The notes under the pieces are model-generated. The model worked only from the letters and a program-made list of their open reading frames with translations. It was not told the origin of the DNA and searched no databases. A stretch of DNA of 64,000 nt from an uncultured virus (IMG/VR IMGVR_UViG_3300035138_000088). Taxonomy: Duplodnaviria > Heunggongvirae > Uroviricota > Caudoviricetes. Location: IMG/VR virus record IMGVR_UViG_3300035138_000088; one strand, written 5' to 3'. Of this stretch, positions 19,688 through 61,416 are shown piece after piece (positions within the stretch are counted from its first letter, which is position 1; every line of letters begins with the position of its first letter). Made by a program: the position numbers and the translations under genes.

Positions 19688-19975
19688 ATGGTATTCTATA
19701 AAGCCATGTTTGTGTGGGAACAGTTAGAAAATGGGAAATGGGAACCGCGTTTATGGAGCATGGCACGACCAGACCCCAACAGCTTCACGGCTCAACTACA
19801 CAGTTTTGACTCAATAGAACAACTACGGAATCGAGTCGCCTTATACATAGCTAACATCGAAGATATGTACGGGAAGGAAGCTAGGTTCGTCAGGGTAGAA
19901 GTAACAAAGTACACCACAATCAAAAGAGAGTTTACTTCATTAAAAGAGATAACGGAAAGCTTTGAAGAGTTCTAA
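19688..19975 (+). CDS. hypothetical protein
   Basis: GGGGAG SD. Confidence 0.7.
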   Translation: MVFYKAMFVWEQLENGKWEPRLWSMARPDPNSFTAQLHSFDSIEQLRNRVALYIANIEDMYGKEARFVRVEVTKYTTIKREFTSLKEITESFEEF

Positions 19976-19989
19976 TGGAATATTGAGCC

Positions 19990-20187
19990 TTGGGAGTATT
20001 AAGAGTGCCAACGTTGACATATTATGTAATAGCCCTTGTATTCGCTATTGAATTAATCATATTTACAGCATATCTAATCAGTCAGCTAGAATTAGGGTTA
20101 GCTGTAGGCTTAATTATCTGGCTGATAGGAGTGATAGCATGTGCAATCTATTTTCTTAAAAAAGAAACCGAACCGAAAAATCCTTGA
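19990..20187 (+). CDS. two-TM membrane protein
   Basis: Two hydrophobic segments. Confidence 0.65.
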   Translation: MGVLRVPTLTYYVIALVFAIELIIFTAYLISQLELGLAVGLIIWLIGVIACAIYFLKKETEPKNP

Positions 20188-20425
20188 ATGCATCCGTTGC
20201 GGTGCATGTTGCGCTACTGGACCATGCCAACACGGGATTGAGGACGAAGAAACTGGGGCTTGTGTATTCTTAAGATTCAACGGCGACACCGCTGGATGTG
20301 GACTCGTGTTAGACGGAAAACTTAAGCCTACAGACATTGGTGTGGGGAAAGGCTGTCCATTAAGGGAACATCCAGACTCTAAAGTGTATCAATATTACCT
20401 AAAAAAGGTAAAGTTTATTAAGTAG
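20141..20425 (+). CDS. CxxCxxCC (YkgJ-like) Fe-S/Zn cluster protein
   Basis: CIRCGACC...C...C.FL...C; start uncertain. Confidence 0.6.
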   Translation: MQSIFLKKKPNRKILECIRCGACCATGPCQHGIEDEETGACVFLRFNGDTAGCGLVLDGKLKPTDIGVGKGCPLREHPDSKVYQYYLKKVKFIK

Positions 20426-20444
20426 ATTTCACTTATAGTTTTAC

Positions 20445-20712
20445 GTCAGCAACTTTGAAGCAGTGCAAGTCTGCCCGAATTGATATGTAGGCTGTCTGGG
20501 CGGGGTACATGCTCCGCTCTCGAACAGCTATCCTATTACCTAACTAGGAAGCGGGTTGCCGTTCAGAGGGACTTAAACGTGTAAGGTAGGGTTCGATACA
20601 CCCAGCAGTAAATGCCCCAGAAAGGCTATAGCGAAGTATCATAAAAAGCATGTTTAGGTTAAGCCCGACGCGGCTGAATCCAACGAAGAACCGTTAAACC
20701 CGTCTTCCGCCA
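20445..20712 (+). ncRNA. candidate structured ncRNA D (~270 nt)
   Basis: After TATA aaagtttattaag; T-loop-like GCAG-TGCAAGT-CTGC; gggcgggg/ctccgctc inside gctgt/acagc; GGAAGCGGGTT/AACCCG-T-CTTCC; acttaaacgtgt/gcatgtttaggt; ends GCCA then pyrimidine tract. Confidence 0.65.
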
Positions 20713-20774
20713 TATATCTCTTTTCAGAAATCTTTATAAGGTAGATTATAATATCATTCTTAAAGGTATTCGAA

Positions 20775-20993
20775 ATGACCGACTATAAGAAAAAATTCGA
20801 AAAAATTGACTCAAATATAGTTAAGGCTGAAGAGACCCTATCAAGTCTGCATGCACAACGAAACGAGACCAAAGCGGCACTAACGCAAGAAATCAAGGAC
20901 CTTGAAGTTGCAAAAGAAGAGCGAATCAAAGCAGTCACAGAAACATACAATTCTCAAATCTCAGGACTCCAAGAAGTTCTCAACTCAGTATAA
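20775..20993 (+). CDS. coiled-coil protein
   Basis: Own promoter, AAGGT SD, poly-T terminator after. Confidence 0.75.
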   Translation: MTDYKKKFEKIDSNIVKAEETLSSLHAQRNETKAALTQEIKDLEVAKEERIKAVTETYNSQISGLQEVLNSV

Positions 20994-21240
20994 ACACTTC
21001 AGCTTTCCTTTTTCTTTTTTTAGAAAACTTTATTAAGTAGTTTGTATTACTATCTTCTAAAAGTGAACAAAAATGGCTAAACAAACTCACTATCAAATAG
21101 GATACACAACATACGACAGTGAAGGCAAATCCAACGTGGAAGCCACAAAGACTACCGATAAATCAGTTGTTATGCATTACGTCAAGAAATTCATGGAACA
21201 AAAAGAAGCCAATCTTACCCTAGACTCGGTGACAATCTAA

Positions 21241-21612
21241 ATGTTGAAACATAAACTATTTTCAATACTCATCATTGCCGCAGTTGTAGCAACAATCGTC
21301 GGCTCAGTAGGGTTCACAGTCTGGTCCCAATGGAACACGTATGAAGTGACGGGTACAGTCAAATCAATTCGGCTGACACAAATAAGCAACAACGTTGAGG
21401 ATGGAATGACGTACATTGTTAGGCTCGAAAACGGGAGACTCTTAGAGCTTGGACCAATAAGCATATTTCACGCCGTAAACACTGACATCGTATTAACGGA
21501 AATAGAAGAGAATACAACCTATACTTTCGTTTGTTGGGGCTTCGAATATACGTTCCCACTAGCTAACATCTACTGGTATCCAAACATCATCGAAGCAAAC
21601 GGGATGACGTAA
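21241..21612 (+). CDS. membrane-anchored OB-like phage protein
   Basis: N-terminal TM; 'TY.F..WG......YPNII' C-terminus. Confidence 0.7.
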   Translation: MLKHKLFSILIIAAVVATIVGSVGFTVWSQWNTYEVTGTVKSIRLTQISNNVEDGMTYIVRLENGRLLELGPISIFHAVNTDIVLTEIEENTTYTFVCWGFEYTFPLANIYWYPNIIEANGMT

Positions 21613-21820
21613 ATTGTCTGAAAAGATTGGCTATTCCTATGAGGAAATAGTTGCTTTACGCAAAAAACAAAAGGAAGCCAAAAACGAAGTAGAAAAACTA
21701 GAAATAGAGAAAGAAATCCAACAAATGTTTGATATTAATGCAATAGCTATAGTTCTCACACATTAACCTCTCCCATCTTTTTTACGAAAGCTTTTTATAA
21801 TAGTTTGTTATATCATTAGT

Positions 21821-21965
21821 CACCAAAAAGGTGTCTAAAAATGAGGGGATTAATCCCGACAAACAGCTAACCCTTCGGGGTAAAATCAATAATCTCAAGT
21901 AGGTAGCGCAACTGAACGAGTGAGATTGGCTGGTCGCGTGGATTAACCTCTCCTTTAATCACCGT
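21821..21965 (+). ncRNA. candidate structured RNA E / regulatory leader
   Basis: After TATA 21791; nested helices gagg/cctc, ttaatcc/ggattaa, cgac/gtcg, cagcta/tggctg, aatctca/tgagatt, plus accc-TTCG-gggt. Confidence 0.6.
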
Positions 21966-22084
21966 TTAAAAGAGATGGAAAAAATGTGTGTCATAGGATA
22001 CGTCTCAATGTTTGGAAAACTATTCGAGATAATGAAGGATGGCACTATTCATGAAACAAAACATGACTTGAGGGAAATAGACTG

Positions 22085-32620: not shown

Positions 32621-32992
32621 TTATTCTACTAGAGCATAAATCGAATCATCGCCACACATAAGAGTGCGACCAGTAGCTACAACAAAAATCTTCTTTTCGT
32701 CGAGTAATTTGAAAAGATGCTTTGATAAAGCCGAGCTGGTCGTCATAAATCCTCTTTTCCAGAACTCGTGGTACATGCTTGACTTTCGCATTTCTCTTTT
32801 ATCAAGGATTTCCAGTATAGCCTTGCGAGTCTTTTCATAGATGCTTAAGCCTTTTCCCCAGTCCTTATATTTTATAGAAAAACGGTTAAGAATGTAAACT
32901 GTTTCTGGACTACATTTAGGACAATATTTAGCTAGAAGATTTTCATCGTCTGTTTCGAAACCGCAATTTGGATTGCTACACTGAAACTTCAA
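32621..32992 (-). CDS. Zn-ribbon + winged-helix putative transcription regulator
   Basis: CSNPNC...CPKC then 'ILEIL...ALSKHLFKL.DE.KI'. Confidence 0.6.
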   Translation of the reverse strand: MKFQCSNPNCGFETDDENLLAKYCPKCSPETVYILNRFSIKYKDWGKGLSIYEKTRKAILEILDKREMRKSSMYHEFWKRGFMTTSSALSKHLFKLLDEKKIFVVATGRTLMCGDDSIYALVE

Positions 32993-33540
32993 TATTGCAC
33001 ACCTTCGTCACATACGTCTTCATCTGGAGCTTTGATTGTAACGATTTCATTAACGAAGTCAGCTAATTCCATGAGTTCTTCAGTAGCATGTCGTCCAGTC
33101 ATGACGATATTCATGTCTTGTGGTATATTATTCAAGAATTGCTTTACTTCATCAACGGTAAGTAACTTACAATAAACGGCTAAGTTTATTTCATCGAGAA
33201 TCAATAGGTCTGTTTTGTTGTCAGTGATATACCGCCAAGTTTCTATTAAAGCTTCTAACGCTTTTTCTTTGTCCCTTCGATTAAGACTATTAAGCCCATG
33301 CCAGCCTTTTCTACCGTACTGTTTGACCGTAAGATATTCTTTTATTTTTTCCATGAATTGAGCTTGATATTCTCCAGTATTTGTGTTCCACTTCATTAAT
33401 TGGAGCATAAAGACCTTTTTACCATGACCTATAGCTCTCAATGCCAAACCTAATGCGTTGGTAGTCTTACCAGCACCATCTCCAGTATAAAGATATATTT
33501 TACCCATTATCTTGTCATCTCCAATCTGTTTATCTTCCAT
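32989..33540 (-). CDS. btuR: ATP:cob(I)alamin adenosyltransferase (CobA/BtuR/CobO family)
   Basis: 'IYLYTGDGAGKTTNALGLALRAIGHG', 'Q.MK', 'LLILDEIN', 'MTGRHA..EL...AD.V.EI'; start likely MGKIY 33507. Confidence 0.9.
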   Translation of the reverse strand: MEDKQIGDDKIMGKIYLYTGDGAGKTTNALGLALRAIGHGKKVFMLQLMKWNTNTGEYQAQFMEKIKEYLTVKQYGRKGWHGLNSLNRRDKEKALEALIETWRYITDNKTDLLILDEINLAVYCKLLTVDEVKQFLNNIPQDMNIVMTGRHATEELMELADFVNEIVTIKAPDEDVCDEGVQY

Positions 33541-34633: not shown

Positions 34634-36010
34634 TCACCTATCATTGAGTATTTCCCTCGCTCTCTTTAACAGGTAAGTTCTCCTGTTTAATCTCGGACGT
34701 TCGACTACTTCATCTAGTAGGGTCTTCTGGATTTTCCCTATAAGGGGACCCGCTTCTATTCCTAAGTCCATAATGTCATAGCCGTTAATCCTTAAGTCTT
34801 TAATCCTGAATGGTTGTTTAGCCACTCTTACTTTTAGGAGCTTCACTTCGAATTTCCTTGTATTTTCGAAGGCTGACCTTACAAATGGACTACCGCATGC
34901 GATTATGTCTGCATTTGCATGAACTACAATGTCAGAAACCCAATCTGGATTTTCAAGCTTAGATAGGTAACGCCGAGCTCCTCTCGAAGTCATAGCCTTA
35001 TTGAAATGTACATCCATATGATGTTTGACCATGAATAGTATATACTTTGCTTCCTCATTAGAGAACTTGAATCGTTCGACGATATTCGATGCTATCTCTA
35101 CGCCATCTAAATGATGCTTGGGGAAGTATGGTTTGGAATCGTTAGCTTTACGTTTGCCGCAATCATGAATTAACCCGACGAATCTAAGCAGAGGCTTTGA
35201 GGATGGTATATGTCGAACCGTTTCGAACATATGGTACATAACCGTGTGCTCATGAGGTTTAGGCTGAACTACATGTTTCAATCGCGTAACTTCAGGAAGG
35301 AGTTGTTCCATTAAGCCAGTACCTTCCAAATAAGACAGAGCCCAGTGGGGGTTTTCGATAGCGAAAATCTTGAATAGTTCGTCTTTGATTCGCTCCATAG
35401 GAATCTCTACGATTAGATGAGATAAAGCCTTAGCCGCGTCATAAGTTTCTTTGTTTATTATGAAACCAAGTTTGCATGCGAAGCGACACATTCGAATCAT
35501 CCTTAGAGGGTCCTCTCTGAATCTTTCCTCTGGAACGCCTACTGTTCGAATTATATGATTGTCCAAGTCCCTGTAGCCTCTAAAGGGGTCAATAAGTTTG
35601 ACACCATTCAAAGCCATAGCGTTAACCGTAAAGTCTCTTCGGCTTAGGTCCTTATCTAGGCTATCCTCAAAAGTCACTTCGTCTGGATGTCTCCTGTCCG
35701 AATACTTTCCTTCAGACCTATAAGTTGTAATCTCTATTTTCTCTGGTCCTCTTCCATCATCATCGTCTATTATAATCGTCATAGTTCCAAACTTTTCCCC
35801 AGTAGGAATAGCTGTAAAAGGTGTACTTCGGAATACTTCGGCTACCTGATTTGGTCTAGCATTTGTTGCTATGTCAACGTCGCTGATTGGACGGTTAAGA
35901 AGCGAATCTCTAACTGCACCACCGACTATATAGGCTTCATAGCCAGCCTTGGTAAGTATGTTGCACAAACCAAAAGCTTTAATGAGTTTCAACATTTTGT
36001 GGTTCTCCAT
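34634..36010 (-). CDS. cca: class II tRNA nucleotidyltransferase (CCA-adding-like) with HD domain
   Basis: 'VGGAVRD.LL....DVDIAT', 'EITTYR', 'DL.RRDFTVNAMA', 'EDPLRMIR..RF', 'ERI..EL', 'HDCGK'. Confidence 0.9.
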   Translation of the reverse strand: MENHKMLKLIKAFGLCNILTKAGYEAYIVGGAVRDSLLNRPISDVDIATNARPNQVAEVFRSTPFTAIPTGEKFGTMTIIIDDDDGRGPEKIEITTYRSEGKYSDRRHPDEVTFEDSLDKDLSRRDFTVNAMALNGVKLIDPFRGYRDLDNHIIRTVGVPEERFREDPLRMIRMCRFACKLGFIINKETYDAAKALSHLIVEIPMERIKDELFKIFAIENPHWALSYLEGTGLMEQLLPEVTRLKHVVQPKPHEHTVMYHMFETVRHIPSSKPLLRFVGLIHDCGKRKANDSKPYFPKHHLDGVEIASNIVERFKFSNEEAKYILFMVKHHMDVHFNKAMTSRGARRYLSKLENPDWVSDIVVHANADIIACGSPFVRSAFENTRKFEVKLLKVRVAKQPFRIKDLRINGYDIMDLGIEAGPLIGKIQKTLLDEVVERPRLNRRTYLLKRAREILNDR

Positions 36011-36153: not shown

Positions 36154-36468
36154 CTATACGTTCTCTATTATTACTAAATGGGGCTTTCCATCATCGTCAA
36201 CCGTAGCCATATATGCCACGTTTTTTGTCGTATAAAGAGTAATAATTCTCATATGATTACTACCAAAAAACTTCTCCAAGATGGATTTTTCAGACTTCTC
36301 GACTTTTCTTACTCCAAATAAACCATCCAAGAGTTCTTTAAGTAAATCAATACATACATTATCTAAGTTCCACGCATCAACGAAGTCCCTTAAAGATGAA
36401 ACTTTCTTCTCTAATTCTCGTAATCTTTTCAATTCCAATTCTAAAGCCATTTCTTCTGCTGAAATCAT
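36154..36468 (-). CDS. hypothetical protein
   Basis: ATGA overlap with ligase. Confidence 0.65.
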   Translation of the reverse strand: MISAEEMALELELKRLRELEKKVSSLRDFVDAWNLDNVCIDLLKELLDGLFGVRKVEKSEKSILEKFFGSNHMRIITLYTTKNVAYMATVDDDGKPHLVIIENV

Positions 36469-37418
36469 TCCCCTTTCTCCTTGTCCTTGTCGGATTGAAG
36501 TCCCATGCTTAATCCTACTGCAAATTCAGTGGGGTTATCTTCCTCTTTTCTAGCTAAGTATTCTTGCCAGTAAGTGAATAACTTCTTAGATGGAGATGAA
36601 TAAAGATGTTTCTTGGCTTCCTTGCCGACATAAGCGGCTACTAAAGGCATGTCGTGGGCGGGGTCCCCAGTTAGTCCTTCGTCGGCATCAACTTTGGCTA
36701 TAGCACCGTAGACTTCGCTATCTGGCATAGATGGATACTCTGGATTACCCCTGTCTTTCTTTATCCTCTCTGGCTTAGGAATGTCAACTTTCACCTTAGC
36801 TTGAATGAGCCCACAGCCGTACTCTTTGTAATAACCGCGTATTTGTTCGGGAACTTTGTAGGCTTTAATAACCATACCTTCGAGACTGTTCGCTTTGCAG
36901 TATTTTAATGCTTCGTCAGCCATAGCCATTAGGCTTTTTTCTGACCTATGGCGAGTCTCAGCCCATAACTTCACTACTGGGATTCCATAATGGAAGGCTT
37001 GTTGATGAACAAGCACATAAGGAAGGAACTTGTCAGCGGCTTTGTCAAATATGTCAAAGATTACCAGCATATCGCGCTCATAGGTTTCCGCTCTTGTGAC
37101 GCTTAATCCTTTTCGACAAGCTTCGACATAAACCAGAAATTGAGGATTATCATTCAAAAGTTGTAAAACTTTGGGATATTCGTCAGTCCTTTTGACTAGA
37201 GCTTGCAAGTCTGAAGCGGCTTCCTCATTGTTTCGGCTATTGATGAGAATAAATTGTCTTTTCATGATAGAGTTTTCTACACTCTTCAATTGAATACCTA
37301 TATTTGAACCGTCTTTCTTCTCGGTCCAGAATAGACGTTGACCTAGCAAAATCCTCTTTGTTGGTTTCATTGAGGAAAGGATTGGTATGTGCGGGTATCG
37401 TTTGAATTCATCATCCAT
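36465..37418 (-). CDS. ATP-dependent RNA ligase (Rnl2-like)
   Basis: Motif I EKKDGSN, SRN, 'VE', 'FDI', 'EGMV', 'AKVK'. Confidence 0.75.
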   Translation of the reverse strand: MDDEFKRYPHIPILSSMKPTKRILLGQRLFWTEKKDGSNIGIQLKSVENSIMKRQFILINSRNNEEAASDLQALVKRTDEYPKVLQLLNDNPQFLVYVEACRKGLSVTRAETYERDMLVIFDIFDKAADKFLPYVLVHQQAFHYGIPVVKLWAETRHRSEKSLMAMADEALKYCKANSLEGMVIKAYKVPEQIRGYYKEYGCGLIQAKVKVDIPKPERIKKDRGNPEYPSMPDSEVYGAIAKVDADEGLTGDPAHDMPLVAAYVGKEAKKHLYSSPSKKLFTYWQEYLARKEEDNPTEFAVGLSMGLQSDKDKEKGE

Positions 37419-50999: not shown

Positions 51000-51770
51000 C
51001 TAATATTTGAACTTTATATGACCATTTACGTTACCATGTGCATCTCTGGTTACCATCCAAGGTTTATCTTTGTCAATCTCTGCATAATGACCTATCCCAT
51101 TTATGTCGCCATCGAGCCACACGTCATATCCAGCATGATGAGCTCTAATACAATAACTGAAGTCTTCTGATGCCTTCAATTTTTCTGTCCATATTACAGG
51201 ATGGAAATTCACTCGTTTATCTTGAATTATTCGTCTACTCAAGCATATGCATCCAGCAGAAGTAACGTAGACTTTTTGTAGTCCTTTACATTTAGATTTA
51301 AACCAAAGTTTATCTTTGCCTTTTCGTTTCCATTTTGAAGCCAAAAACGTTCCTTCTGGGTAACGCCTTAAATATGGAGCTCCTATTACATCTTTGTGTC
51401 TTCGCGTAATCTGGGTTACGAAGTCTGGTGGATAAATTACTATATCATCATCTATGAATATCGCATAGTTAGGATTTAGTTTTCTTGCATACTCAAGTAA
51501 AACCTGTCTGGCTATGCCGATTCCTTCGTATGGATTTCCAGCCTTTTCTATTAGGTCCTCTTTAAACCATAATCGAATCAGTTTTTTGGGACCTTTAAAG
51601 TCTTGGATAACTTGTAACGTATCATCCGTACTGTTATTTTCCAAGAAAACATATAGGTCTGGCTGTGGGTAAAGCTCAATAAGTTTTCCCAAGCAATCTC
51701 GAAGGAAAGTAGCGTTATTATATGTCGGAATTAAGAATATTACTTTGTTTTTTGTTTCCATTTTTTCCAT
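51000..51770 (-). CDS. GT-A (family 2) glycosyltransferase
   Basis: 'IPTYN', 'ENNSTDDT', 'FIDDD', 'SEDF..C'. Confidence 0.85.
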   Translation of the reverse strand: MEKMETKNKVIFLIPTYNNATFLRDCLGKLIELYPQPDLYVFLENNSTDDTLQVIQDFKGPKKLIRLWFKEDLIEKAGNPYEGIGIARQVLLEYARKLNPNYAIFIDDDIVIYPPDFVTQITRRHKDVIGAPYLRRYPEGTFLASKWKRKGKDKLWFKSKCKGLQKVYVTSAGCICLSRRIIQDKRVNFHPVIWTEKLKASEDFSYCIRAHHAGYDVWLDGDINGIGHYAEIDKDKPWMVTRDAHGNVNGHIKFKY

Positions 51771-52075
51771 CTCATTTTATCATAAATAGCATATATATCA
51801 TCAATAAGATAATTAATTTTTCTTATATCCAAAAAATTAATTACATGTAATAGTTCATGGAACAAAACATCAAACTCTTCAAATGTTGGATGATTATATC
51901 GAAGAAGTTTAGTGTTTAGGATAATTGCTACCTTACTTGTTCTTAAGTTCTTAAGACATACCCCACGCAATATTCCATTTTTATATCTTCTTTTTCTTCC
52001 TCTACTTAATTCCTCAATTCTTTTATTGTCCCACCACATCACTTCTATAATTTTACGTTTACATCCATTTTTCAA
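51740..52075 (-). CDS. small HExxH metallopeptidase-like protein
   Basis: 'VLFHELLH'; AT-rich. Confidence 0.5.
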   Translation of the reverse strand: MKNGCKRKIIEVMWWDNKRIEELSRGRKRRYKNGILRGVCLKNLRTSKVAIILNTKLLRYNHPTFEEFDVLFHELLHVINFLDIRKINYLIDDIYAIYDKMRWKKWKQKTK

Positions 52076-54602
52076 GTTTTGTTTCCCCTAATATGCTGTC
52101 ATATTCTATGCCTAATGCATCAAGCAATTGTTCAAACGTGCTTTTAAGCATTTCGTGGTATTTTGTTACTGCTACATCTTGTTTGGTCGCCCATTGTAAT
52201 GGCATAACATTTACTTCCTCTGGAATATTTTTATCTCTAAAAACGAATGTTTTGTCAACAATTTTGATGAAAGATACCACATCGCCTTTCCTCAAAACTA
52301 TTCCATCATTCATAAGCATCCGAGCCGCCTTAACATGTTGTGGAGTTGATTTTTCGTACATGTTCAAGTTTTTACCTAACGTCATATGAAATGCCATTTC
52401 TCGAAGGTCGAAGTCTCGCATCTTGATTTTTTGGTAAATGTTACGAACTACCTTTTTGACTCCCTTCTTTACTGCTTCTACTTCCTCTGGAGTTTCAGCT
52501 TTAGCAAGATATTTCTTGGTTACATTGAATGCTTCCTTGATTACTATCGGGACATGCTTCTTTTTGCCAGTCATTCCTTTAACGTCAACGTTACCATCTA
52601 TCGTAACCCCAACGTAATTTTTCTTGCGTGAACTTAAGCAGACATACCGATATTCTTTGTCAACTTCAAGGTCTAATTGTAGCTCTTTCGTGCTCCAATC
52701 TATCAAAGCTTTTACTTGTTCTGGAGTTGGCTTATGCGCGAAAACGCTGTCAGTGTCTCCATACAAGATTCTCATTCCTAAAGCTTTAGATTTTTCAATC
52801 GTTAGTTCAGTAGAGTTACGAGCTATAGATGCGATTGATTCAGCTACTGGCGGACAATACAAATCAAAGTTTACGTCACCAAATACGCCGTAGCTGGCGT
52901 TCAAAATAACCTTCATGGCTTGTTCTACTACGGCATAAAATGGGTCCTTTTTGAGTTTCTTGTAATGTTCAACACGCAAATCTCTAAGCATAGATATTAT
53001 TTCGCTTTCCATAGCGCGGACTTTTTTGCAAACCCAATGGGTTGTCTGGGGAACTTTATTTGATTTGCATTCTGGATGGTTACAGTTTATGCTTGCATAA
53101 CCGAGATTCCAGACTTTTTGGACTGTCGGATAGAGGCTTGCAAAATCAATGACTTTAACTATGAAGTGGATTCCAGCTATAGGCTCTACGACTATTGCGC
53201 CTTTGTATTTTTTGCCTTTTATCATGGCTGATGTGCATGCTTTGCCTTTAATGGTTAATATGTCTTCCTTGTTCGGTATAAGATAGTTTCGGTTTCTATG
53301 TTCATAGAATAGGACGTTACGAATCCATTGTCCTATAGCATTACGGTTCATGTCTTCCATAGTCATCGAAGCTAACCGCATAATTATCATCATAAGCCGC
53401 ATAACAAGGTCTTCGTTGTACGACGTAAGCTGTAGAGTCACGTCACCATCGCCCACGTTATATTTGGCTAATTGCGTGTAGGTCCAATCATGCATTTTGT
53501 CAGCTAAGTTTCCTTCTGGACCAATCTTGACTTTTCCTTCTCCCAATAGGGCTTTACCGATTTCATCTAGTGAAATATTTTTGTATTTTTGTTTAAAAGC
53601 GTAATTTCTTAATGAACGATTGAAGAATAGTCTATAAAGGTCTATATGGATTGAGCCAGTGATTTTAACGCATCTTCGTCCAAGCTGAATTGGAATATCA
53701 TTTTTTTCTATACCTAGTTTTACTGCTCTGTTATAGAGGTAAGTTAAGTCGAAATTATCACCGTTAAATGTTATAATGAATGGATACTCAAGGATACCAG
53801 CAAAAATCGCCAGAAGTAAATCCTTTTCGGAATCATAAAACTCTATGTTTGCATCTACGTCTTCATTTCCAACCTCAACGCCTTTACGGAGAAGTATAAG
53901 TTCCCGTCTTACTCCATTGGAACCAATGAGGCAACATGAAACCACTGGAAACTCTGCTTTGTTTGCATCTGGAACTTTCGTTCGTTTTTCACCTAACACT
54001 TCGATGTCTATAGCGACGCGCTTAAAACTTGGTATGTCATACTCAAAAAATCTTACGAATCTACTCAGATTTCCAGAATGTAATCCAATTTTCTTGATTA
54101 GTTCAGCTACTTTTTCTTCAGCTTTCTGATTTACTACCCTTTTCAGTTTTCCATTAATGAGCTTGTATGGCATTCCAACCTCTAATTTTTCATCGAAAAT
54201 ATAGCAATAAAGATACGGAATTTTAGCTTCCCAAACTTTGGCTTCTTCACCTAAATACTTAGGAATAATATCTCTTATGCTTAGGTCAGCCTTTTTATTG
54301 CCTATAAGGGAAGGGTCATCAACGATTATTTTAGTTACCATAACCTCTTTCTCTAGTAGAGCATCCCATTTCTTGATTATTCTAACTTGGGCGTTATCGA
54401 AAACTTTAGTTTTAGTTTTTAGCTCATCTAACTCTACTGGTGATACGTTAGTAAAACAATATGGTCTGTGAGACTTTTTGCTCATGATATAATAAAGTTT
54501 TTCGGTTTCTGGAGAATAAAATATTAATTTGTTTACCTTATGATGACCGTTATAGAATCCATCAACTAGATACACTTCTAGATTCTCTGGAAGCAAATTC
54601 AC
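52059..54602 (-). CDS. polB: family B DNA polymerase, archaeal PolB1-like
   Basis: Exo 'IDIEV', 'FNGDNFD'; pol 'DFASLYP', 'KVILNASYG', 'YGDTDS', 'KKNY.G', 'KGMTGKK'; 'C.H.EC..N.VP.T.HWVC' insert. Confidence 0.95.
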   Translation of the reverse strand: MNLLPENLEVYLVDGFYNGHHKVNKLIFYSPETEKLYYIMSKKSHRPYCFTNVSPVELDELKTKTKVFDNAQVRIIKKWDALLEKEVMVTKIIVDDPSLIGNKKADLSIRDIIPKYLGEEAKVWEAKIPYLYCYIFDEKLEVGMPYKLINGKLKRVVNQKAEEKVAELIKKIGLHSGNLSRFVRFFEYDIPSFKRVAIDIEVLGEKRTKVPDANKAEFPVVSCCLIGSNGVRRELILLRKGVEVGNEDVDANIEFYDSEKDLLLAIFAGILEYPFIITFNGDNFDLTYLYNRAVKLGIEKNDIPIQLGRRCVKITGSIHIDLYRLFFNRSLRNYAFKQKYKNISLDEIGKALLGEGKVKIGPEGNLADKMHDWTYTQLAKYNVGDGDVTLQLTSYNEDLVMRLMMIIMRLASMTMEDMNRNAIGQWIRNVLFYEHRNRNYLIPNKEDILTIKGKACTSAMIKGKKYKGAIVVEPIAGIHFIVKVIDFASLYPTVQKVWNLGYASINCNHPECKSNKVPQTTHWVCKKVRAMESEIISMLRDLRVEHYKKLKKDPFYAVVEQAMKVILNASYGVFGDVNFDLYCPPVAESIASIARNSTELTIEKSKALGMRILYGDTDSVFAHKPTPEQVKALIDWSTKELQLDLEVDKEYRYVCLSSRKKNYVGVTIDGNVDVKGMTGKKKHVPIVIKEAFNVTKKYLAKAETPEEVEAVKKGVKKVVRNIYQKIKMRDFDLREMAFHMTLGKNLNMYEKSTPQHVKAARMLMNDGIVLRKGDVVSFIKIVDKTFVFRDKNIPEEVNVMPLQWATKQDVAVTKYHEMLKSTFEQLLDALGIEYDSILGETKLEKWM

Positions 54603-54603
54603 A

Positions 54604-55695
54604 TTATTTTACTCCAATGTTATCCTTTATGATACCAAAGTCCAAACTAGCTCTAAGCCGCATGGTTGCAAGTTTGACCTCATATTCTTTTATGAGCTCA
54701 CTAGGATTATCGTCTATCTTTCTAATTAAGCTTTCTATGACGCTTGCCATTAGCGGGTCATTAACTTCAACGTTGTATTCTGAGAGTCCAAGCTTATCCA
54801 TAAGCATTGTATTCTTGTCAACAGTTGAAATTGAAATCGTTGGAATCTTCAAAGCTATTGGTATAACTTGTGAATGACCACGCATTCCTATAACCATCTT
54901 AGCGTAACTGTAATAATTTAATCCGTTTTTCAACATTTTATTCCAATCTAGAATTTGTACCATTTCAGGATTCCAATCAACGTAATTGAAGCACATACCA
55001 TCTGAAGGAACATGTTTTGCAAAAAAAACCTTTATTCCAATTCCAGTTAAAAAGTCAACTATATGCTTTATTTTAGCACAAAATTGTTCTGGTGGAACTT
55101 TGTTATTAGTGTATCTATGAATTATTCCGTCTCCAGATATGTTTAATATTGCATAGTCCCCTTTTATAAGCCTACTGGTTTCATCGCGTTTAACCCAATA
55201 AGCTGGGTCTGGACTTTCTCTTGGATTAAATCCAATTTCTTCAAGTTTTTCTTTTGTTCCATCAGCTCTAACACTGAAGAACCTTGAGTTTTTACGTATC
55301 TCAATTAAATTGGCTAATTGACACCGATAATCCATCTTAGCTAGGTTTGTAGAGCGGGGAGCATTATACCCTATTCCATATACAACATAAGGTACTTTCA
55401 GTTTTTTGTACCAAGATACTGGCTTAAACCACCATAAAGGAGAAGCATCCCCAAGCCAACCACCGCCGCCAATAAAGATTAAATCATAATCATCTGGATT
55501 GATTCTTTTTAATATTTCTTCAAAGGTCAAGTCTCTCTTTGGAGCATCATTATCGTAAGCCATAGTGTCTTTATCATGTATATTCTCTACTGGAATATGG
55601 AACATTTCAGCCATGATGTTTTTTGCACCCATAGCAAGCAATTTATCACCATAATTACATGTACCATATCCTAAATGGAAGTGAAATATCTTCAT
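54604..55695 (-). CDS. polysaccharide pyruvyl transferase family protein
   Basis: 'NYGD', 'IGGGG', 'GIG', 'SVR', 'PDPA', 'MRGHS'. Confidence 0.85.
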   Translation of the reverse strand: MKIFHFHLGYGTCNYGDKLLAMGAKNIMAEMFHIPVENIHDKDTMAYDNDAPKRDLTFEEILKRINPDDYDLIFIGGGGWLGDASPLWWFKPVSWYKKLKVPYVVYGIGYNAPRSTNLAKMDYRCQLANLIEIRKNSRFFSVRADGTKEKLEEIGFNPRESPDPAYWVKRDETSRLIKGDYAILNISGDGIIHRYTNNKVPPEQFCAKIKHIVDFLTGIGIKVFFAKHVPSDGMCFNYVDWNPEMVQILDWNKMLKNGLNYYSYAKMVIGMRGHSQVIPIALKIPTISISTVDKNTMLMDKLGLSEYNVEVNDPLMASVIESLIRKIDDNPSELIKEYEVKLATMRLRASLDFGIIKDNIGVK

Positions 55696-56138
55696 ATTTT
55701 TAATTTCAGCTCCAACTTCTTTCTGGGTCTATCGGTAAATTCGTTTGTTACTATAAATCCGAATCTCTCATATAAGGTTATCGCTTTCTCATTGTCCGCG
55801 TAAGTTGAAAGGTGAATTTCATTACAACCCATATTTTTGGCATATTTGATTAATTCGCACATTAACTTTGTTCCATATCCTCTGCCGACAACAGCCGATA
55901 CTATACCAAGTCTACATGTATGTTCTGTAAAGTTATAAAGATGACCAAACGCTACTATTGTATAGCCTTCTATAAGTGCAAGCTTAATTGAGCTAAAATC
56001 AGACAAGATTCCATTTACTATTTTGGTATCAAACTTTCTTCCGTAATAATGCCATAAATCTAAGGCTTTAGGAGTTAGCCATTGAAGGAAATCCAGTAAT
56101 AATCTTTCATCTTCTACCGTTAAAACTTTAATGTACAT
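55692..56138 (-). CDS. GNAT acetyltransferase
   Basis: 'GRGYGTKLM', 'N.KAI.LYERFGF'. Confidence 0.85.
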   Translation of the reverse strand: MYIKVLTVEDERLLLDFLQWLTPKALDLWHYYGRKFDTKIVNGILSDFSSIKLALIEGYTIVAFGHLYNFTEHTCRLGIVSAVVGRGYGTKLMCELIKYAKNMGCNEIHLSTYADNEKAITLYERFGFIVTNEFTDRPRKKLELKLKI

Positions 56139-56736
56139 CTTTGTTTTCTTCCTTTAAAGAAAATTCCCAGTATTTAAAGAACGTCGCCATAGCTGAAAAA
56201 TAACGATTAGAAGCTGAAGGTTTAATTGCCGTAATTAAAACTCCATCTCCCCAAAAAGCATAATTCGCTACCTTTTCGGTTACAAGCTTCTTGAGTTCGA
56301 CTATGTGGTAACCGTTTCTAAAGAATTTTTCTATACAAGCCTTAAATAGCGCAAGTGAATGAACCTCTAAAACATACTCATTTACCATAGAAAATATTTT
56401 ATCTGGAACAGTAAAGAGATGCCGTTCTCCACCGTCAAGGTCGCATTTTATCACGTCTGGCTTATCTTCTAAGATTATCTTAGAGATTTCGTTTGGAGTT
56501 TTTATGAATAGAAAAATTGGTTTCATATTCTTGAGCCATGCTGAGTTCTCAAGCAGTTTCTCGTAGCGTTCTTTGTTACCTTCTACAGCTATCACCTGAA
56601 TAGCTCCCTTCTCTAAGAAGAATTCAGCCGAACTTCCGTAATCTGCACCCAAATCTAGTACTTTCTTTCCAGCATAATCTATCAAACCATATTCCTTAGA
56701 GTAATCTTCGTCTCCAATAAACGGTTTTAATCTCAT
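56128..56736 (-). CDS. FkbM-like SAM-dependent methyltransferase
   Basis: 'VLDLGADYG', 'AVEG', 'IKCDLDGGE', 'EVH'. Confidence 0.8.
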   Translation of the reverse strand: MRLKPFIGDEDYSKEYGLIDYAGKKVLDLGADYGSSAEFFLEKGAIQVIAVEGNKERYEKLLENSAWLKNMKPIFLFIKTPNEISKIILEDKPDVIKCDLDGGERHLFTVPDKIFSMVNEYVLEVHSLALFKACIEKFFRNGYHIVELKKLVTEKVANYAFWGDGVLITAIKPSASNRYFSAMATFFKYWEFSLKEENKDVH

Positions 56737-57755
56737 AATAAAGCAACTCCATTGTCTCTTCTCACGGTCTTTTTGAATGTTTTCAGATTCTCATAACCTA
56801 TGTATGGAACATAATAATAGTCTGCATACCATAAGGCTATAAATTTCTTTGGTATTGTAGGATATGATTTAACACCATCAAGCCAGTTATCTATTAGGAT
56901 TTCTGGGCTATTCACTCCACCCATAGCGCGTACTATTTGAGCCCCAGTAAATCTTGCATTGAACTCAAAAATCTTGATTTCTCCACCAGAACGGAATCCT
57001 TGAACTGATAAGGGACCTACAACGCCAAGTTTGCCAACTATTTTAGCTATCATGAGTTTAAAATCCAAGTCATCTGTTTCTCCGCCATGAATTGTTTTGT
57101 AACTCATACCAAACTTTTTGACTGATTCGGCGCATGTGATTGAAAGTATTTCACCGTCCTTGGCTACTGTAGCCATCGCAGATAATTCTGTCCCATCGAG
57201 CTTTTCTTGAATTATATTTTCGAATCCATGCTCCTTGGAATATTGAATCATATTTTGGAGTTGGAACTGATTTGAACAATCAAAAACCATTCTGCTTCCA
57301 AACCCGCCACGCGGCTTAGTTATGACTGGGAAAGGATTAACATATTTTACATCGCTACCTTTCCATGTTTTCGGATAAGGAAACTTGTTTTCCCTGAGCC
57401 AGTTAGCCAATGCAAATTTGTCCCGTGCCAATTTTAAAACATTGTCTGGCGGCAAAAGGATTTCAGCATCAACCTCATTTTTTCGGAATGAAAGAATTTC
57501 GAGTGGAATATCATGAGCCACTATTATTAAGTCAATATCTTCTTTGGCTACTATTTTGTTTATATCGTCAATCCATTCGCTTACTTCTTTTCTAATCAAA
57601 TAGCCTCTATCTCCGACATATGCTCCTATAAGTAATGGGTCTATGTCAGACGTGATTATGTTATACTTTTGCTTTTTGATATTAGCTAGTCTTAAACATT
57701 TTATGGTTGATAAAGATGCTTGACCAGAACTTCCAACTATCAAAATATTTCTCAT
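56733..57755 (-). CDS. ATP-grasp ligase (CPSase-like, glycan-cluster type)
   Basis: 'DKF', 'P.PKT', 'FP...KPR.G.GS', 'QE.L.G.E', 'FEFNARF.G'. Confidence 0.85.
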   Translation of the reverse strand: MRNILIVGSSGQASLSTIKCLRLANIKKQKYNIITSDIDPLLIGAYVGDRGYLIRKEVSEWIDDINKIVAKEDIDLIIVAHDIPLEILSFRKNEVDAEILLPPDNVLKLARDKFALANWLRENKFPYPKTWKGSDVKYVNPFPVITKPRGGFGSRMVFDCSNQFQLQNMIQYSKEHGFENIIQEKLDGTELSAMATVAKDGEILSITCAESVKKFGMSYKTIHGGETDDLDFKLMIAKIVGKLGVVGPLSVQGFRSGGEIKIFEFNARFTGAQIVRAMGGVNSPEILIDNWLDGVKSYPTIPKKFIALWYADYYYVPYIGYENLKTFKKTVRRDNGVALL

Positions 57756-57756
57756 T

Positions 57757-58989
57757 TTATCCTACCTCTACATATTCCCCATCATCAACTGGTTTTACAA
57801 TATGAGTTCCTTTAACATGTTTTAATTCAAACTTTTTGAGACAGTGTGAACAAGTTACCACATTACAAAATTCCTTTTCAAAATCAGATTTAAGTTCAGT
57901 TATTTTTCTTTTACTCATTTCAAATAAGAAATCGTCTACTGATGTGGAATGACTTTTTATACTATAAAGTTGAAAGAGTTGTAAAGTATTCTTTCGTCGT
58001 CTACCCTGTTTATTATATTGTCTTATAGCTTCCAAACAAGCTTCATGATAGGCTTCTCTGGATATTTCTGGAGACCAAAGCTTCAAAGCAGTTTTTCTAG
58101 CTTCTTTACCCATTTCTTTAGCTAAATCATGGTCTTCAAGTAAGTTGTTAACATAATTAATCATTTCTGTTGGATTGGTGCTTTTAAATCCATTAACGCC
58201 ATGCTCTATTATTCTATCCATCTCCCAGCTTGCATAAACAACTGGTGGCATACCACTCATCATTGCTTCTATTAATCCATCCGTTAAGATTGTTCCAGTA
58301 GCACATTCCAAGTAACATCTATTTAGCTTGTATGCTACAATCATCTCTTCGAATGTAGTAATAGGGGTTCCGAGCCTAAAATCCAATCCATATCTTTTTG
58401 AGTGCGTAAAAGGATGAATTTTATCCCAAATAAATCCGCCGCGTTCCATGTATCTTGCATCATTCTGATTAGGAATACCTATTCGTTCACATGTCCACAT
58501 AGCTTTCTTTACTTCTCCAGTCCAGCCATTATAGATTTCTGGGTCTTGACTCCACGCAATTTTCCCTTTCATTCCATAAAATTCTTTTTGACTTTCGGCT
58601 GAGTAAATACATGGATAATCTCCTATAAGTTTGCTACCATGTTTAGCTAACAGTTCTTTAACTACAGTGTTACATAAGTGGAATTTCCAAACTATAGGTA
58701 TGTCTTGAAGGTATTTTTCCCATACTTCAATTTGTCCAGCGTCTGGAATTAAAATAGCAACGTCGTAATCATCAACATCAATTTCCTTCATACTTTCCCC
58801 GAGCAATTTAACGTTAACTGGCTTTGGTTTTATACATCTTAACCATCTCCAATAGCCATTTGATATTGATAAATCACCTTTAGGTTCTCTTCCGATAATC
58901 CTATTCGTAACATAAAACGTATCATTTGGCATTGATGAAGCCAGTCCAAACATCCAACCGTAATGTGGAATACAAGTTAAAATTTTCAT
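57757..58989 (-). CDS. GT-B (family 4) glycosyltransferase
   Basis: 'LIEAMMSGMP.V', 'I.HG.NG', 'MG..AR'. Confidence 0.8.
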   Translation of the reverse strand: MKILTCIPHYGWMFGLASSMPNDTFYVTNRIIGREPKGDLSISNGYWRWLRCIKPKPVNVKLLGESMKEIDVDDYDVAILIPDAGQIEVWEKYLQDIPIVWKFHLCNTVVKELLAKHGSKLIGDYPCIYSAESQKEFYGMKGKIAWSQDPEIYNGWTGEVKKAMWTCERIGIPNQNDARYMERGGFIWDKIHPFTHSKRYGLDFRLGTPITTFEEMIVAYKLNRCYLECATGTILTDGLIEAMMSGMPPVVYASWEMDRIIEHGVNGFKSTNPTEMINYVNNLLEDHDLAKEMGKEARKTALKLWSPEISREAYHEACLEAIRQYNKQGRRRKNTLQLFQLYSIKSHSTSVDDFLFEMSKRKITELKSDFEKEFCNVVTCSHCLKKFELKHVKGTHIVKPVDDGEYVEVG

Positions 58990-60023
58990 TTTATTGACTC
59001 CACCATTTCTTTGAATTGTAAGCCAGATGTAATCCAATTAAACTTGTCCGCGTAAGCTCTAGCATTATTTTCTTGTTCTTTCCGCAACTTTTCATCGTTA
59101 ATATATTTACATAAAGTTTTCTTGAATTCTTTTCTATTTGTCATAACTATGGCTTTATGTTTTGCATATTCTGGGAAACATTCTAAATTTGAAGTTATAA
59201 CAGTTTTGCCGTGTCCAAGCATATAAGCCAATGATGATTCGCCGATTTTATGCCAATACGTGACCACTCCTAAATCAGCCGCCGACATCCATACGTCTGT
59301 TTCTTCATCGGAAATTAATGGACGAGAAAAGTGTACTCTGGAACTCATACCAAATGTGCTGGCATAATCCAACAAATATTGCTGGGACTCATGAGAGCAC
59401 GGCGTTCCACAAAACAAGGCTTCAGTTCCGTACATTCCAGAAATCCATTTCAACAAGTCGTCATGTCCTTTGGATTTACCATAATAGCCCCATGCTATAA
59501 CCGAATTTGGAAGTCTTTGACCTACAGTTTTTCTGCACTCGGCTTTGTTAAGTTCTACGCCTTGAGTACAAGGAAATCTCCATACTGTCATTTTATCATG
59601 ATATTTCTTTCCACTTTTGCCGAGTGCATTAATCCATTTTTGTCTGTAAAAATCCTGAGATAAAGTAACAAACTCAGAATTCTTTAATATTGTATGTTTT
59701 TGTTCTTCAGTTCTAGGTTCTTCGTTCCAGTTGACACAAAAAATGATTTTCTTTGTTGGGTCAGAAAACACGCTTTCTAGGTCTCTATGAAAAATATAGT
59801 CCCAATAAGATAGGATAATCTTGTTGCTTCGTGCCATCTCTAACCCAAGACGAATCTCATTCTCATTATATTTCTGTCTAATATCGTAAAGGTTGACGAA
59901 ATCAACGTCTAACCCCACAGCTTCTAATCCTTGAATGAAGTTTTTTGGTGGTGGATAGCCCTGAAGTAAACAACCATTCTCGTGGGGAATCCAGTAGCCC
60001 ATAACAGTTACGGTTTCACCCAT
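58986..60023 (-). CDS. GT-B (family 4) glycosyltransferase
   Basis: 'WGY....KG.D.L', 'MSAAD', 'GK.VITS'. Confidence 0.75.
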   Translation of the reverse strand: MGETVTVMGYWIPHENGCLLQGYPPPKNFIQGLEAVGLDVDFVNLYDIRQKYNENEIRLGLEMARSNKIILSYWDYIFHRDLESVFSDPTKKIIFCVNWNEEPRTEEQKHTILKNSEFVTLSQDFYRQKWINALGKSGKKYHDKMTVWRFPCTQGVELNKAECRKTVGQRLPNSVIAWGYYGKSKGHDDLLKWISGMYGTEALFCGTPCSHESQQYLLDYASTFGMSSRVHFSRPLISDEETDVWMSAADLGVVTYWHKIGESSLAYMLGHGKTVITSNLECFPEYAKHKAIVMTNRKEFKKTLCKYINDEKLRKEQENNARAYADKFNWITSGLQFKEMVESIK

Positions 60024-60481
60024 TCTCTGATGTCAACTCCGTTTATTCCATTAGCTCTCAATCGTTCAAGGACATATAGCCTATCTTCGACGAACATATC
60101 TATTCCTAAGCTTTTTGCTGTCTGAATCTTGAATTCAAGCTCTGATGTTTGAATTGTTTCCCTGAAACAAATATGTTTAAAGCCAATCTTTCTTAATAAA
60201 TGTTCCGCCTTTTTACTTTTAGTGGTTCTTCCAGAAATGATGACTGAATCTCGTGGAATCTTGTCTAAAACTTTCCCATTCAAATTAAATGGGAGCCTAG
60301 CTATAATAAACACTATAGCTATTTTTAGTGACCATAACCCAGCTTTACTAAATGGGTCATTAGGTCCTGTGTAACGCATAAAGATTTCAAACGGCTTTGG
60401 GAGCTTATTTAAAACGCCGTCAAAATCAAATGCAAGTTTTATTCTTCCCAACTCCACTTCTTTCCGTGCTCGTTGTACCAA
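60008..60481 (-). CDS. HAD-superfamily phosphatase-like protein
   Basis: 'FDFDGV', 'ISGR', K, 'FVED'. Confidence 0.75.
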   Translation of the reverse strand: MVQRARKEVELGRIKLAFDFDGVLNKLPKPFEIFMRYTGPNDPFSKAGLWSLKIAIVFIIARLPFNLNGKVLDKIPRDSVIISGRTTKSKKAEHLLRKIGFKHICFRETIQTSELEFKIQTAKSLGIDMFVEDRLYVLERLRANGINGVDIREWVKP

Positions 60482-61416
60482 TCAACAGTTCTTTTTAGTC
60501 CTTCCTCGAAAGAAACGAATTCTGTCCCGCCAGTGAGTTTATTGAATAGCGTATTATCGCATAATAATTCATCTACATCGAACGGTCTCAGTTTCTTTTT
60601 GTCTATTATGATTTCATAGTCGTTTTTACCCATAACCTTGGCTATTGTGTCAGCAATTTCTTTCACTGACCAATTTACTCCTCTACCAAAGTTTACGACA
60701 GTTCCTTCCAAGTTTGGTGTTTCCATAAGTTTAATGTGACCCTGTGTTGCGTCGTTAACGAAAGTAAAATCTCGTTTCGCGTAGATGTTGCCTAGACTTA
60801 AAGTGTTTCCTCTGCTGAATTGCGTGATTATCTCTGGGATAATATAAGGCTGGGCTTCTCTTGGTCCAAAACAATTGAATTGTCTTAGAATTATCACTGG
60901 AATGTTTCGTTCTTTCCAGAGGATGAAACAAGCTCTATCGCCAGCGAACTTGGCTAACGCATAAATCGAGTGTGGTGTAGTTGGATGGGATTCGCTCATT
61001 GGATTAACTCTTGCAGTACCATAGACTTCGGAAGTAGAATAATATATTATCCTTTTAACTCTAGCTTTTTGGCACGACTTGAGTACGTGTATTGTTCCAA
61101 GCGTGTTTGTTTCAAACATTATCTCGGGATTCTGGAATCCTTTTGGTATGAAAGGTTCAGCCGCTAGATGGAAACAATAGTCAATTTTGTCACGTTTCAA
61201 TATTTCATCTAGAAGCTCATGGTTCTTTATGTTACCAACGACAAGATTGGCTTTCGTTCCGTCTAGATGAAAACGTTTTCCAGCGCAAAGGTTATCTAAT
61301 ACTGTAACTTCACAATTTATCTTCTCTAATTGGCGAACTAAGGATGAACCTATGAATCCAGCACCGCCAGTCACTAGAACATTCGAACCTTCTACTTTAT
61401 ATGTTTGGTTTTTCAT
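60439..61416 (-). CDS. NAD-dependent nucleotide-sugar epimerase/dehydratase
   Basis: 'TGGAGFIGS', 'HLAA', 'STSEVYG', YxxxK, 'RDFTFV.D'. Confidence 0.92.
   Translation of the reverse strand: MKNQTYKVEGSNVLVTGGAGFIGSSLVRQLEKINCEVTVLDNLCAGKRFHLDGTKANLVVGNIKNHELLDEILKRDKIDYCFHLAAEPFIPKGFQNPEIMFETNTLGTIHVLKSCQKARVKRIIYYSTSEVYGTARVNPMSESHPTTPHSIYALAKFAGDRACFILWKERNIPVIILRQFNCFGPREAQPYIIPEIITQFSRGNTLSLGNIYAKRDFTFVNDATQGHIKLMETPNLEGTVVNFGRGVNWSVKEIADTIAKVMGKNDYEIIIDKKKLRPFDVDELLCDNTLFNKLTGGTEFVSFEEGLKRTVDWYNEHGKKWSWEE

Follow-up and report, generated by a model that had tools for sequence, protein, structure and literature searches.

An island of 268 nt that is free of coding sequence and rich in G+C, here named RNA D, was located in a 64-kb stretch of viral DNA (the window). 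A promoter-like box stands in front of it, a T-run follows it, and it matches no known RNA family. From these features we infer transcription, both ends, a fold and a function. With a confidence somewhat short of even, RNA D is tentatively considered as a separate, orphan non-coding transcription unit of a Bathyarchaeia virus, and it was filed provisionally as an independent archaeal transcription unit. The underlying sequence observation is real, but the exceptional pairing claimed for it in the initial annotation was not borne out. The features of the locus, all on the plus strand, are as follows.

20141-20425 (+): upstream open reading frame (ORF), 94 aa, Cys-rich, with a C-x2-C-G-x-C-C motif
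20405-20426 (+): BRE/TATA-like putative promoter box of RNA D (octamer at 20414-20421), overlapping the stop codon of the upstream ORF
20443-20445 (+): predicted transcription start at A20443 or G20445, both preceded by a pyrimidine; placed from the box position
20445-20712 (+): RNA D in its initially annotated limits, 268 nt, 50% G+C, without an ORF
20481-20538 (+): predicted 5' hairpin domain of 5 + 1 + 6 + 1 + 9 bp with a 4-nt loop, present in the minimum free energy (MFE) and centroid folds
20547-20708 (+): predicted 3' multi-branch domain, with an 11-bp closing helix (20547-20557 with 20697-20708)
20589-20603 (+): predicted hairpin with a T-arm-like sequence, 4-bp stem and 7-nt loop
20709-20712 (+): the sequence GCCA after the closing helix, the 3' end chosen in the initial annotation
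20714-20724 (+): pyrimidine tract ending in TTTT (20721-20724), candidate terminator
20724-20745 (+): promoter box of the next gene, 21.0 bits, with the ATG 41 nt after the box register; repeat family D1
20775-20993 (+): downstream ORF, 72 aa; T5 and T7 runs come after it, then a further promoter box

The gap between the two small ORFs (20426-20744, 319 nt) is the second longest of the ten ORF-free gaps of at least 100 nt in the window, which amount to about 1.9 kb in total. Its G+C content (0.46) is the highest among the ten, the other nine ranging from 0.33 to 0.42. RNA D itself has a G+C content of 0.50, while the window averages 0.381 (sd 0.034). This places it at the 99.8th percentile when 268-nt windows are ranked, with only one non-overlapping window being higher, in agreement with the GC-rich island described initially. 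The lack of an ORF was also confirmed. All six frames of 20426-20774 contain six to eight stop codons each, of at least two kinds, so that no single stop-codon reassignment opens a frame, and recoding of the gap was rejected for this reason. When the 11 stop-to-stop pieces of the gap were searched against Pfam (E ≤ 1), no family was found, and no protein relative was found for a 41-aa piece. A 49-aa piece had a tandem-repeat protein as its sole match, which arose through summed weak repeats and was discarded as spurious. BLASTn of the gap against the window returned only promoter pieces and short matches at chance level, and no long complementarity between RNA D and the remaining window was found. 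The largest ORF-free gap of the window lies at 21613-22066 (454 nt, G+C 0.35) and contains a piece (21775-21817) similar to the promoter region at 20716-20758.

The upstream ORF is also G+C-rich (0.466 over 20119-20386). It has no Pfam or PHROG family and no homologue in the 51-165 aa length class among 5.8 billion proteins. The ORF is absent as a protein from that collection, although the PolB of the window is present there; furthermore, it lacks an ATG and shares 47 nt, in another frame, with the 65-aa ORF before it (19990-20187, +). Its start, and even its reality as a gene, are uncertain. The whole block around RNA D (16-26 kb) consists of ORFans without a counterpart in the related virus G001 (see below).

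The window belongs to a 95.6-kb contig (P0001) from a tailed virus with double-stranded DNA. It encodes a portal protein (PHROG matches), a family B DNA polymerase (PolB), a ribonucleotide reductase and a KaiC-like ATPase; genes between about 2 and 26 kb are on the plus strand, and those beyond are on the minus strand. When the viral PolB (52059-54602, -) was compared with cellular or chromosomal PolB sequences from dozens of Bathyarchaeia metagenome-assembled genomes (MAGs), the identity was 44-51% over the full length; with PolB of cultured phages it was only about 24%. On this basis the host very probably belongs to the Bathyarchaeia, and the similarity also suggests that virus and host have exchanged genes. 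The window most likely belongs to a roughly 96-kb tailed virus infecting Bathyarchaeia. Viruses of this group are described in PMC10541130 as known from metagenomes only. The sole sequencing run listed as containing the locus is a DNA run from a wetland metagenome, from which the viral sequence probably derives, and its contigs at the locus comprise one identical contig with 0 variants and 0 joints.

Several other genes of the window were recorded. A 13-kb sugar-modification cluster (51000-63718, -) surrounds PolB and includes at least three glycosyltransferases, a DegT-type aminotransferase, an NAD-dependent epimerase/dehydratase, a pyruvyl transferase, an ATP-grasp enzyme and an FtsJ-like methyltransferase. 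A CobA-type corrinoid adenosyltransferase (32989-33540, -) is located away from this cluster. A class II CCA-adding enzyme of bacterial type (PolyA_pol head and HD domain; 34634-36010, -) is adjoined by an RNA ligase (36465-37418, -), and the probable host of this virus is an archaeon. No tRNA genes were called by ARAGORN in the 64-kb window, and the two enzymes look like an RNA/tRNA repair module without the usual viral tRNA cluster.

A common motif was observed before many genes of the virus. It is found on both strands, in the orientation of the gene and 27-47 nt ahead of the start codon, and is an A-rich stretch made up of TAGAAA, one base and then CTTTATTAAG (for example at 21020(+), 25079(+), 51003(-), 41842(-), 30976(-) and 26369(-)). 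Together with poly-T terminators, it looks like an archaeal BRE/TATA promoter, a type with which the closeness of the viral PolB to Bathyarchaeia PolB fits. The archaeal promoter is described in PMC7289017 as a 7-8 bp TATA box with an adjacent A-rich BRE and a T(A/G) initiator.

The promoter matrix was trained on 16 other sites, and the RNA D box was outside the training set. The box scored 11.7 bits and ranked 23rd of 127,958 positions, 16 of the positions ranked above it being the training sites. Random first-order sequence contained a mean of 4.06 positions per 64 kb as good as this box, and at least one scored site of the window (36022) is a false positive, as it overlaps a start codon. 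Taken alone, the score is modest. The TATA part of the box is perfect and the BRE part is weaker and departs from the consensus. A 12-mer of the box is identical to the sites at 21029(+) and 41822(-), and a 19-nt direct repeat occurs three times within 600 nt (20410, 20729 and 21025); from its second and third copies it is 41-43 nt to the start codons of the next two genes. Behind the RNA D box there is no ORF with a start codon. The box at 20405-20426 may thus act as a promoter, as suggested by its sequence and position. Another promoter-like box, found directly after the ribonucleotide reductase gene (38310 to 38165, -), is separated from the next box by about 145 nt without an ORF and may belong to another short non-coding unit.

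The spacing between the TATA box and the transcription start in archaea is 26-30 nt. As the definition of an archaeal transcription unit, we used a BRE/TATA element about 26-30 nt upstream of a purine start and poly-T at the end. Both a box and a T4 run are present at RNA D, and the score of the box is modest. The TATA box and the pyrimidine tract named as flanks in the initial annotation were recovered as the TATA-like octamer and the TTTT, respectively. This TTTT is the first run of four or more T after the predicted start, lies 9 nt past 20712 and is abutted by the promoter box of the next gene. Runs of 4-7 T were also observed just upstream of eight of the 16 other promoter-like sites examined. 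With the box, the frame-free stretch, the T-run and the next box in this order, the unit reads as a promoter, about 275 nt, a T-run and the next promoter. As a terminator, T4 is at the weak end; according to PMC7289017, short poly-U stretches suffice for termination by the archaeal RNA polymerase.

Rfam 15 was searched, as proposed with the initial annotation, and none of the 4227 families matched RNA D at the gathering score. When the filters were relaxed (E ≤ 10) for a 751-nt segment (20200-20950), no match fell inside RNA D; two junk matches were outside it or on the other strand. The whole window gave no match at E ≤ 1. Archaeal RNase P RNA (RF00373; gathering score 84 bits, P1-P4 core with CR-I and CR-V) and archaeal SRP RNA (RF01857; 96.5 bits, helix 8 motifs and Alu-domain loops) were both rejected, as RNA D was unmatched by either at the gathering score, at E ≤ 10 and at E ≤ 1. 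As controls, the same models detected RNase P RNA in four of five Bathyarchaeia genomes (163-211 bits) and SRP RNA in all five (148-178 bits). Because these host RNAs are found by the models and RNA D is not, RNA D is no captured host RNase P or SRP RNA. In one Bathyarchaeia MAG (G003), contig C10 has two full-length genes for RNase P RNA, which are separated by 2.4 kb and oppositely oriented (L112, 249652-249952, +, 181 bits; L113, 252340-252637, -, 163 bits).

For a tRNA or tRNA-like RNA, we looked for a cloverleaf, or for a 7-bp acceptor stacked on a 5-bp T-stem with a 7-nt T-loop (U54-A58), the 3' strand and NCCA. ARAGORN called no gene at default settings, with or without introns, and gave only sub-threshold calls at 70-80% stringency; the geometry of helices and loops also did not fit. 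A tmRNA, that is, a tRNA-like domain with a tag reading frame in standard or permuted form, was likewise rejected, since ARAGORN found none even at 80% stringency with permuted forms included, and Rfam found none. Group I and II introns and small ribozymes had no Rfam match in RNA D. An intron would have exons on either side that join into a single reading frame; the ORFs flanking the gap are separated by a promoter box and by a start codon with its own box. A box C/D sRNA was sought as a C box (RUGAUGA) near the 5' end, a D box (CUGA) near the 3' end and a K-turn; it was rejected, as 20440-20725 contains no RTGATGA and a single CTGA (20674). The initial statement that RNA D lacks hallmark sequences of RNase P RNA, SRP RNA, tmRNA and group I introns therefore agrees with both Rfam 15 and ARAGORN.

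Relatives of RNA D were sought in several collections. BLASTn with RNA D against phage records found none, and no exact 20-mer of RNA D was found in IMG/VR. IMG/VR was also scanned with five window proteins as anchors (the upstream and downstream ORFs, the KaiC-like ATPase, a 268-aa protein and PolB), and only weak or spurious loci (L001-L004) without similarity to RNA D were obtained. In a metagenome collection, a 178-aa neighbour gave one weak, spurious locus (L005) with no tblastx match to the window. A PolB search of the protein collection indicated that closer viruses exist, one (P0002) with 71% identity (on a 78-kb contig) and a dozen with 52-59%; P0004, P0005, P0008, P0010 and P0013, at 53-59%, are encoded on contigs of 20-61 kb. 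The alignment-based scans with PolB and the ATPase reached only G001 (PolB 41% identical) and G002 (32%). G001 is a complete 112-kb genome with terminal repeats, and it shares the ATPase, RNA ligase, portal protein and PolB with the window. RNA D was not found in G001 or G002 by BLASTn or by R1, a covariance model of 20481-20712 (232 nt) built on the predicted fold, and the G+C-richer gaps of G001 have no similarity to it.

Cellular genomes were also searched. Five MAGs with the PolB most similar to that of the virus gave only chance matches to RNA D, and R1 found none in 151 Bathyarchaeia genomes. In 401 Bathyarchaeia genomes, BLASTn returned three short hits (22-37 nt), all to 20612-20659 of the window, located in a Prismane/CO-dehydrogenase gene, an RNA polymerase subunit gene and a 318-aa ORF. 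The best of them has a pooled expectation of about 0.004-0.007 by our own arithmetic; we read all three as chance, since they fall within unrelated protein genes and could not be extended by protein comparison. A search for the portal protein found none in a class sample of 401 genomes or an order sample of 401 (the two samples overlap), and one for the viral RNA ligase found none in five MAGs, so no provirus relative was seen among the genomes sampled.

The fold of RNA D was predicted and compared with dinucleotide shuffles. The MFE of the whole element is -78.9 kcal/mol compared to -75.5 +/- 4.8 for the shuffles (z = -0.70), and 47 of 200 shuffles folded as well. In the predicted fold, 58% of the bases are paired. 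The plus strand folds slightly better than the opposite strand (z = +0.28), and its fold includes 12 G-U pairs that would be A-C mismatches on the other strand. The MFE and centroid folds are almost the same; the ensemble diversity is 32.9 (60.9 +/- 18 in the shuffles), and 6% of 200 shuffles had a value as low, which makes it the one mildly unusual measure of the fold.

All helices proposed initially are present in the MFE fold. The nested hairpin (6 + 1 + 9 bp) is at 20490-20529, the 11-bp closing helix consists of 5 + 6 bp with one bulged U, and the 12-bp helix with three G-U pairs joins 20571-20582 and 20648-20659. When the domains were delimited by hand, the z-scores were -2.99 for 20481-20538 and -2.39 for 20547-20712 (with GCCA), with boundaries chosen post hoc. 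As a control, one cutting rule was applied to RNA D and to 45 random windows of the same genome. Under this rule the 5' hairpin had z = -3.37 and the 3' domain without GCCA z = -1.77, and domains with z ≤ -2.3 were found in 10 of the 45 control windows and with z ≤ -3.37 in three. The best sub-domain of RNA D ranks fourth among the 46 windows. The domain z-scores are not exceptional, because control windows reach the same values under the uniform rule. Hence, the fold of RNA D is not above chance.

Of the tRNA-like features, GCCA is at 20709-20712 and is free in the centroid fold, as initially described, but in the MFE fold its G and C contact 20449-20450 (2 bp). No signal marking 20712 as the 3' end of an RNA was found, and this end is the choice of the initial annotation. 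The hairpin read as a T-loop contains TTCGA and has a 4-bp stem and a 7-nt loop, but its register is wrong for a T-arm. As folded, U and A are not at loop positions 1 and 5, and in the register that gives a tRNA T-loop the stem has a G-A mismatch, as read from the letters; the resemblance is one of sequence only.

RNA D was compared with known systems. It resembles archaeal SRP (7S) and RNase P RNAs in its size class (about 270-320 nt), in its G+C enrichment relative to an A+T-richer genome, in a terminal helix that joins distant parts, and in a stand-alone BRE/TATA promoter (putative in RNA D) followed by a T-run. It differs from them in having no match to RF01857 or RF00373 and no conserved P4 or helix-8 motifs, and in being encoded by a virus. 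Likeness to tRNA-like RNAs and tmRNA comes from a hairpin (20682-20695) placed directly before the 3' strand of the long terminal helix and then GCCA, from GGGTTCGAT elsewhere, and from the class II CCA-adding enzyme and RNA ligase of the virus. However, the terminal helix has 11 bp with a bulge instead of 7 bp, a T-loop sequence is missing from the adjacent hairpin, and the T-arm-like hairpin is more than 100 nt from the 3' end.

Stable small RNAs of bacterial viruses include the T4 species 1 and 2 RNAs, the phi29 pRNA and the large phage-borne RNAs GOLLD and ROOL. Like these, RNA D is putatively promoter-driven, is frame-free, has a predicted structure and lies among small genes of unknown function. 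In contrast, it has an archaeal-type promoter and no adjacent tRNA cluster, and is much shorter than GOLLD or ROOL. RNA D matches no Rfam family, and the families of the T4, phi29, GOLLD and ROOL RNAs are presumably all in Rfam 15.

Among other explanations, the one that we take most seriously, though we doubt it, is a non-functional spacer. A G+C-rich segment of about 600 nt (~20100-20720) would have been acquired, its 5' part being still a small Cys-rich gene and its 3' part decayed and transcribed at most as a 3' UTR, with helices such as any sequence of 50% G+C gives. Since the upstream ORF is also raised in G+C, the island could indeed be one acquired segment with a decayed 3' part. The fold no better than that of shuffles, the missing homologues in the collections searched, and the location in a fast-turnover neighbourhood of ORFans absent from G001 are all consistent with a spacer. 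No protein family or relative was traced in any frame, however, and an exact copy of the TATA-like 12-mer of the virus stands at the right distance and in the right orientation; moreover, the other non-coding gaps of the virus are A+T-rich. A cis-acting leader is unlikely. According to this explanation, the promoter at 20405-20426 would drive a long structured 5' leader of the genes from 20775, alongside the promoter at 20724-20745, and T4 would be an attenuator. It can be entertained because T4, a weak terminator, may leak, and four T are few for efficient termination in archaea, the next unit having T5 and T7 at its end; RNA D is also on the same strand as the downstream genes, with tandem promoters in series. 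Yet a full promoter box of its own precedes the downstream gene at the usual distance, Rfam showed no match to a riboswitch or leader family, and to our knowledge attenuation by a conditional stop is not established in archaea.

The most ambitious reading, in which RNA D would be the founding member of a new ~270-nt structured RNA class of Bathyarchaeia viruses, with a 3' tRNA-like module composed of the long terminal helix, the hairpin beside it and NCCA, processed by host RNase P and RNase Z and kept intact by the viral CCA-adding enzyme and RNA ligase, is in our opinion very unlikely. If it were true, the RNA could be, for example, a decoy for host defence nucleases that target tRNA, or a primer or handle RNA. 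The initial proposal of a new large ncRNA class retains its first part, as no known family was matched, but no second member was found in the collections searched and the pairing is at chance level. Hardly any weight is given to a DNA-level element (a replication origin, packaging or attachment site) with hairpins that matter in DNA. The fine-scale G-C skew changes sign near 20.5-20.6 kb, and the T-arm-like sequence could be the relic of a tRNA-gene attachment site. The 2-kb skew, on the other hand, is positive from 2 to 26 kb and turns only with gene orientation at about 26 kb, no iterated repeats or long palindromes beyond the promoter boxes occur in 19900-21300, no integrase domain was found among 42 large ORFs scanned, and the 12 G-U pairs work only in plus-strand RNA. 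A very divergent member of a known family (RNase P, SRP, tmRNA or tRNA-like RNA, group I intron, phage large RNAs) missed by the models is close to refuted, and we consider it extremely improbable. Its length of about 270 nt, G+C richness and paired ends look like archaeal 7S and RNase P RNAs, and the stretch CAGAAAGGCU recalls what we take to be the CR-V region of RNase P RNA, which serves as a lead only. Against this, the partner box for the CR-V-like stretch is absent as read from the sequence, the relaxed Rfam search (E ≤ 10) gave no match, ARAGORN called nothing, and the same models score host RNase P and SRP RNAs at 148-211 bits.

We thus return to the separate non-coding transcription unit. 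In this case the host RNA polymerase with TBP and TFB would start about 28-30 nt after the BRE/TATA-like box, near 20443-20445, and about 275 nt would be transcribed without a reading frame. Transcription would stop, at least partly, at the pyrimidine/T4 tract (20714-20724) before the next promoter. For the G+C-rich transcript, a stable hairpin on the 5' side (20481-20538) and a branched 3' domain with the 11-bp closing helix are predicted, and it would be synthesised alongside the small and possibly early ORFan genes around it. As for function, our best guess is a stable trans-acting RNA, either a protein-binding scaffold or a decoy, and not an antisense RNA.

Our literature search found no paper on structured non-coding RNA in archaeal viruses, and the field appears little studied. 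RNA D is at present a single unconserved candidate, and its value is as a pointer for related contigs or transcriptomes. The presence of RNA D in a virus with a CCA-adding enzyme and an RNA ligase, and with no tRNA gene in 64 kb, could point to RNA repair or a decoy. Should RNA D prove to be a genuine stable RNA, it would offer a first way into the RNA-based functions of Bathyarchaeia viruses.
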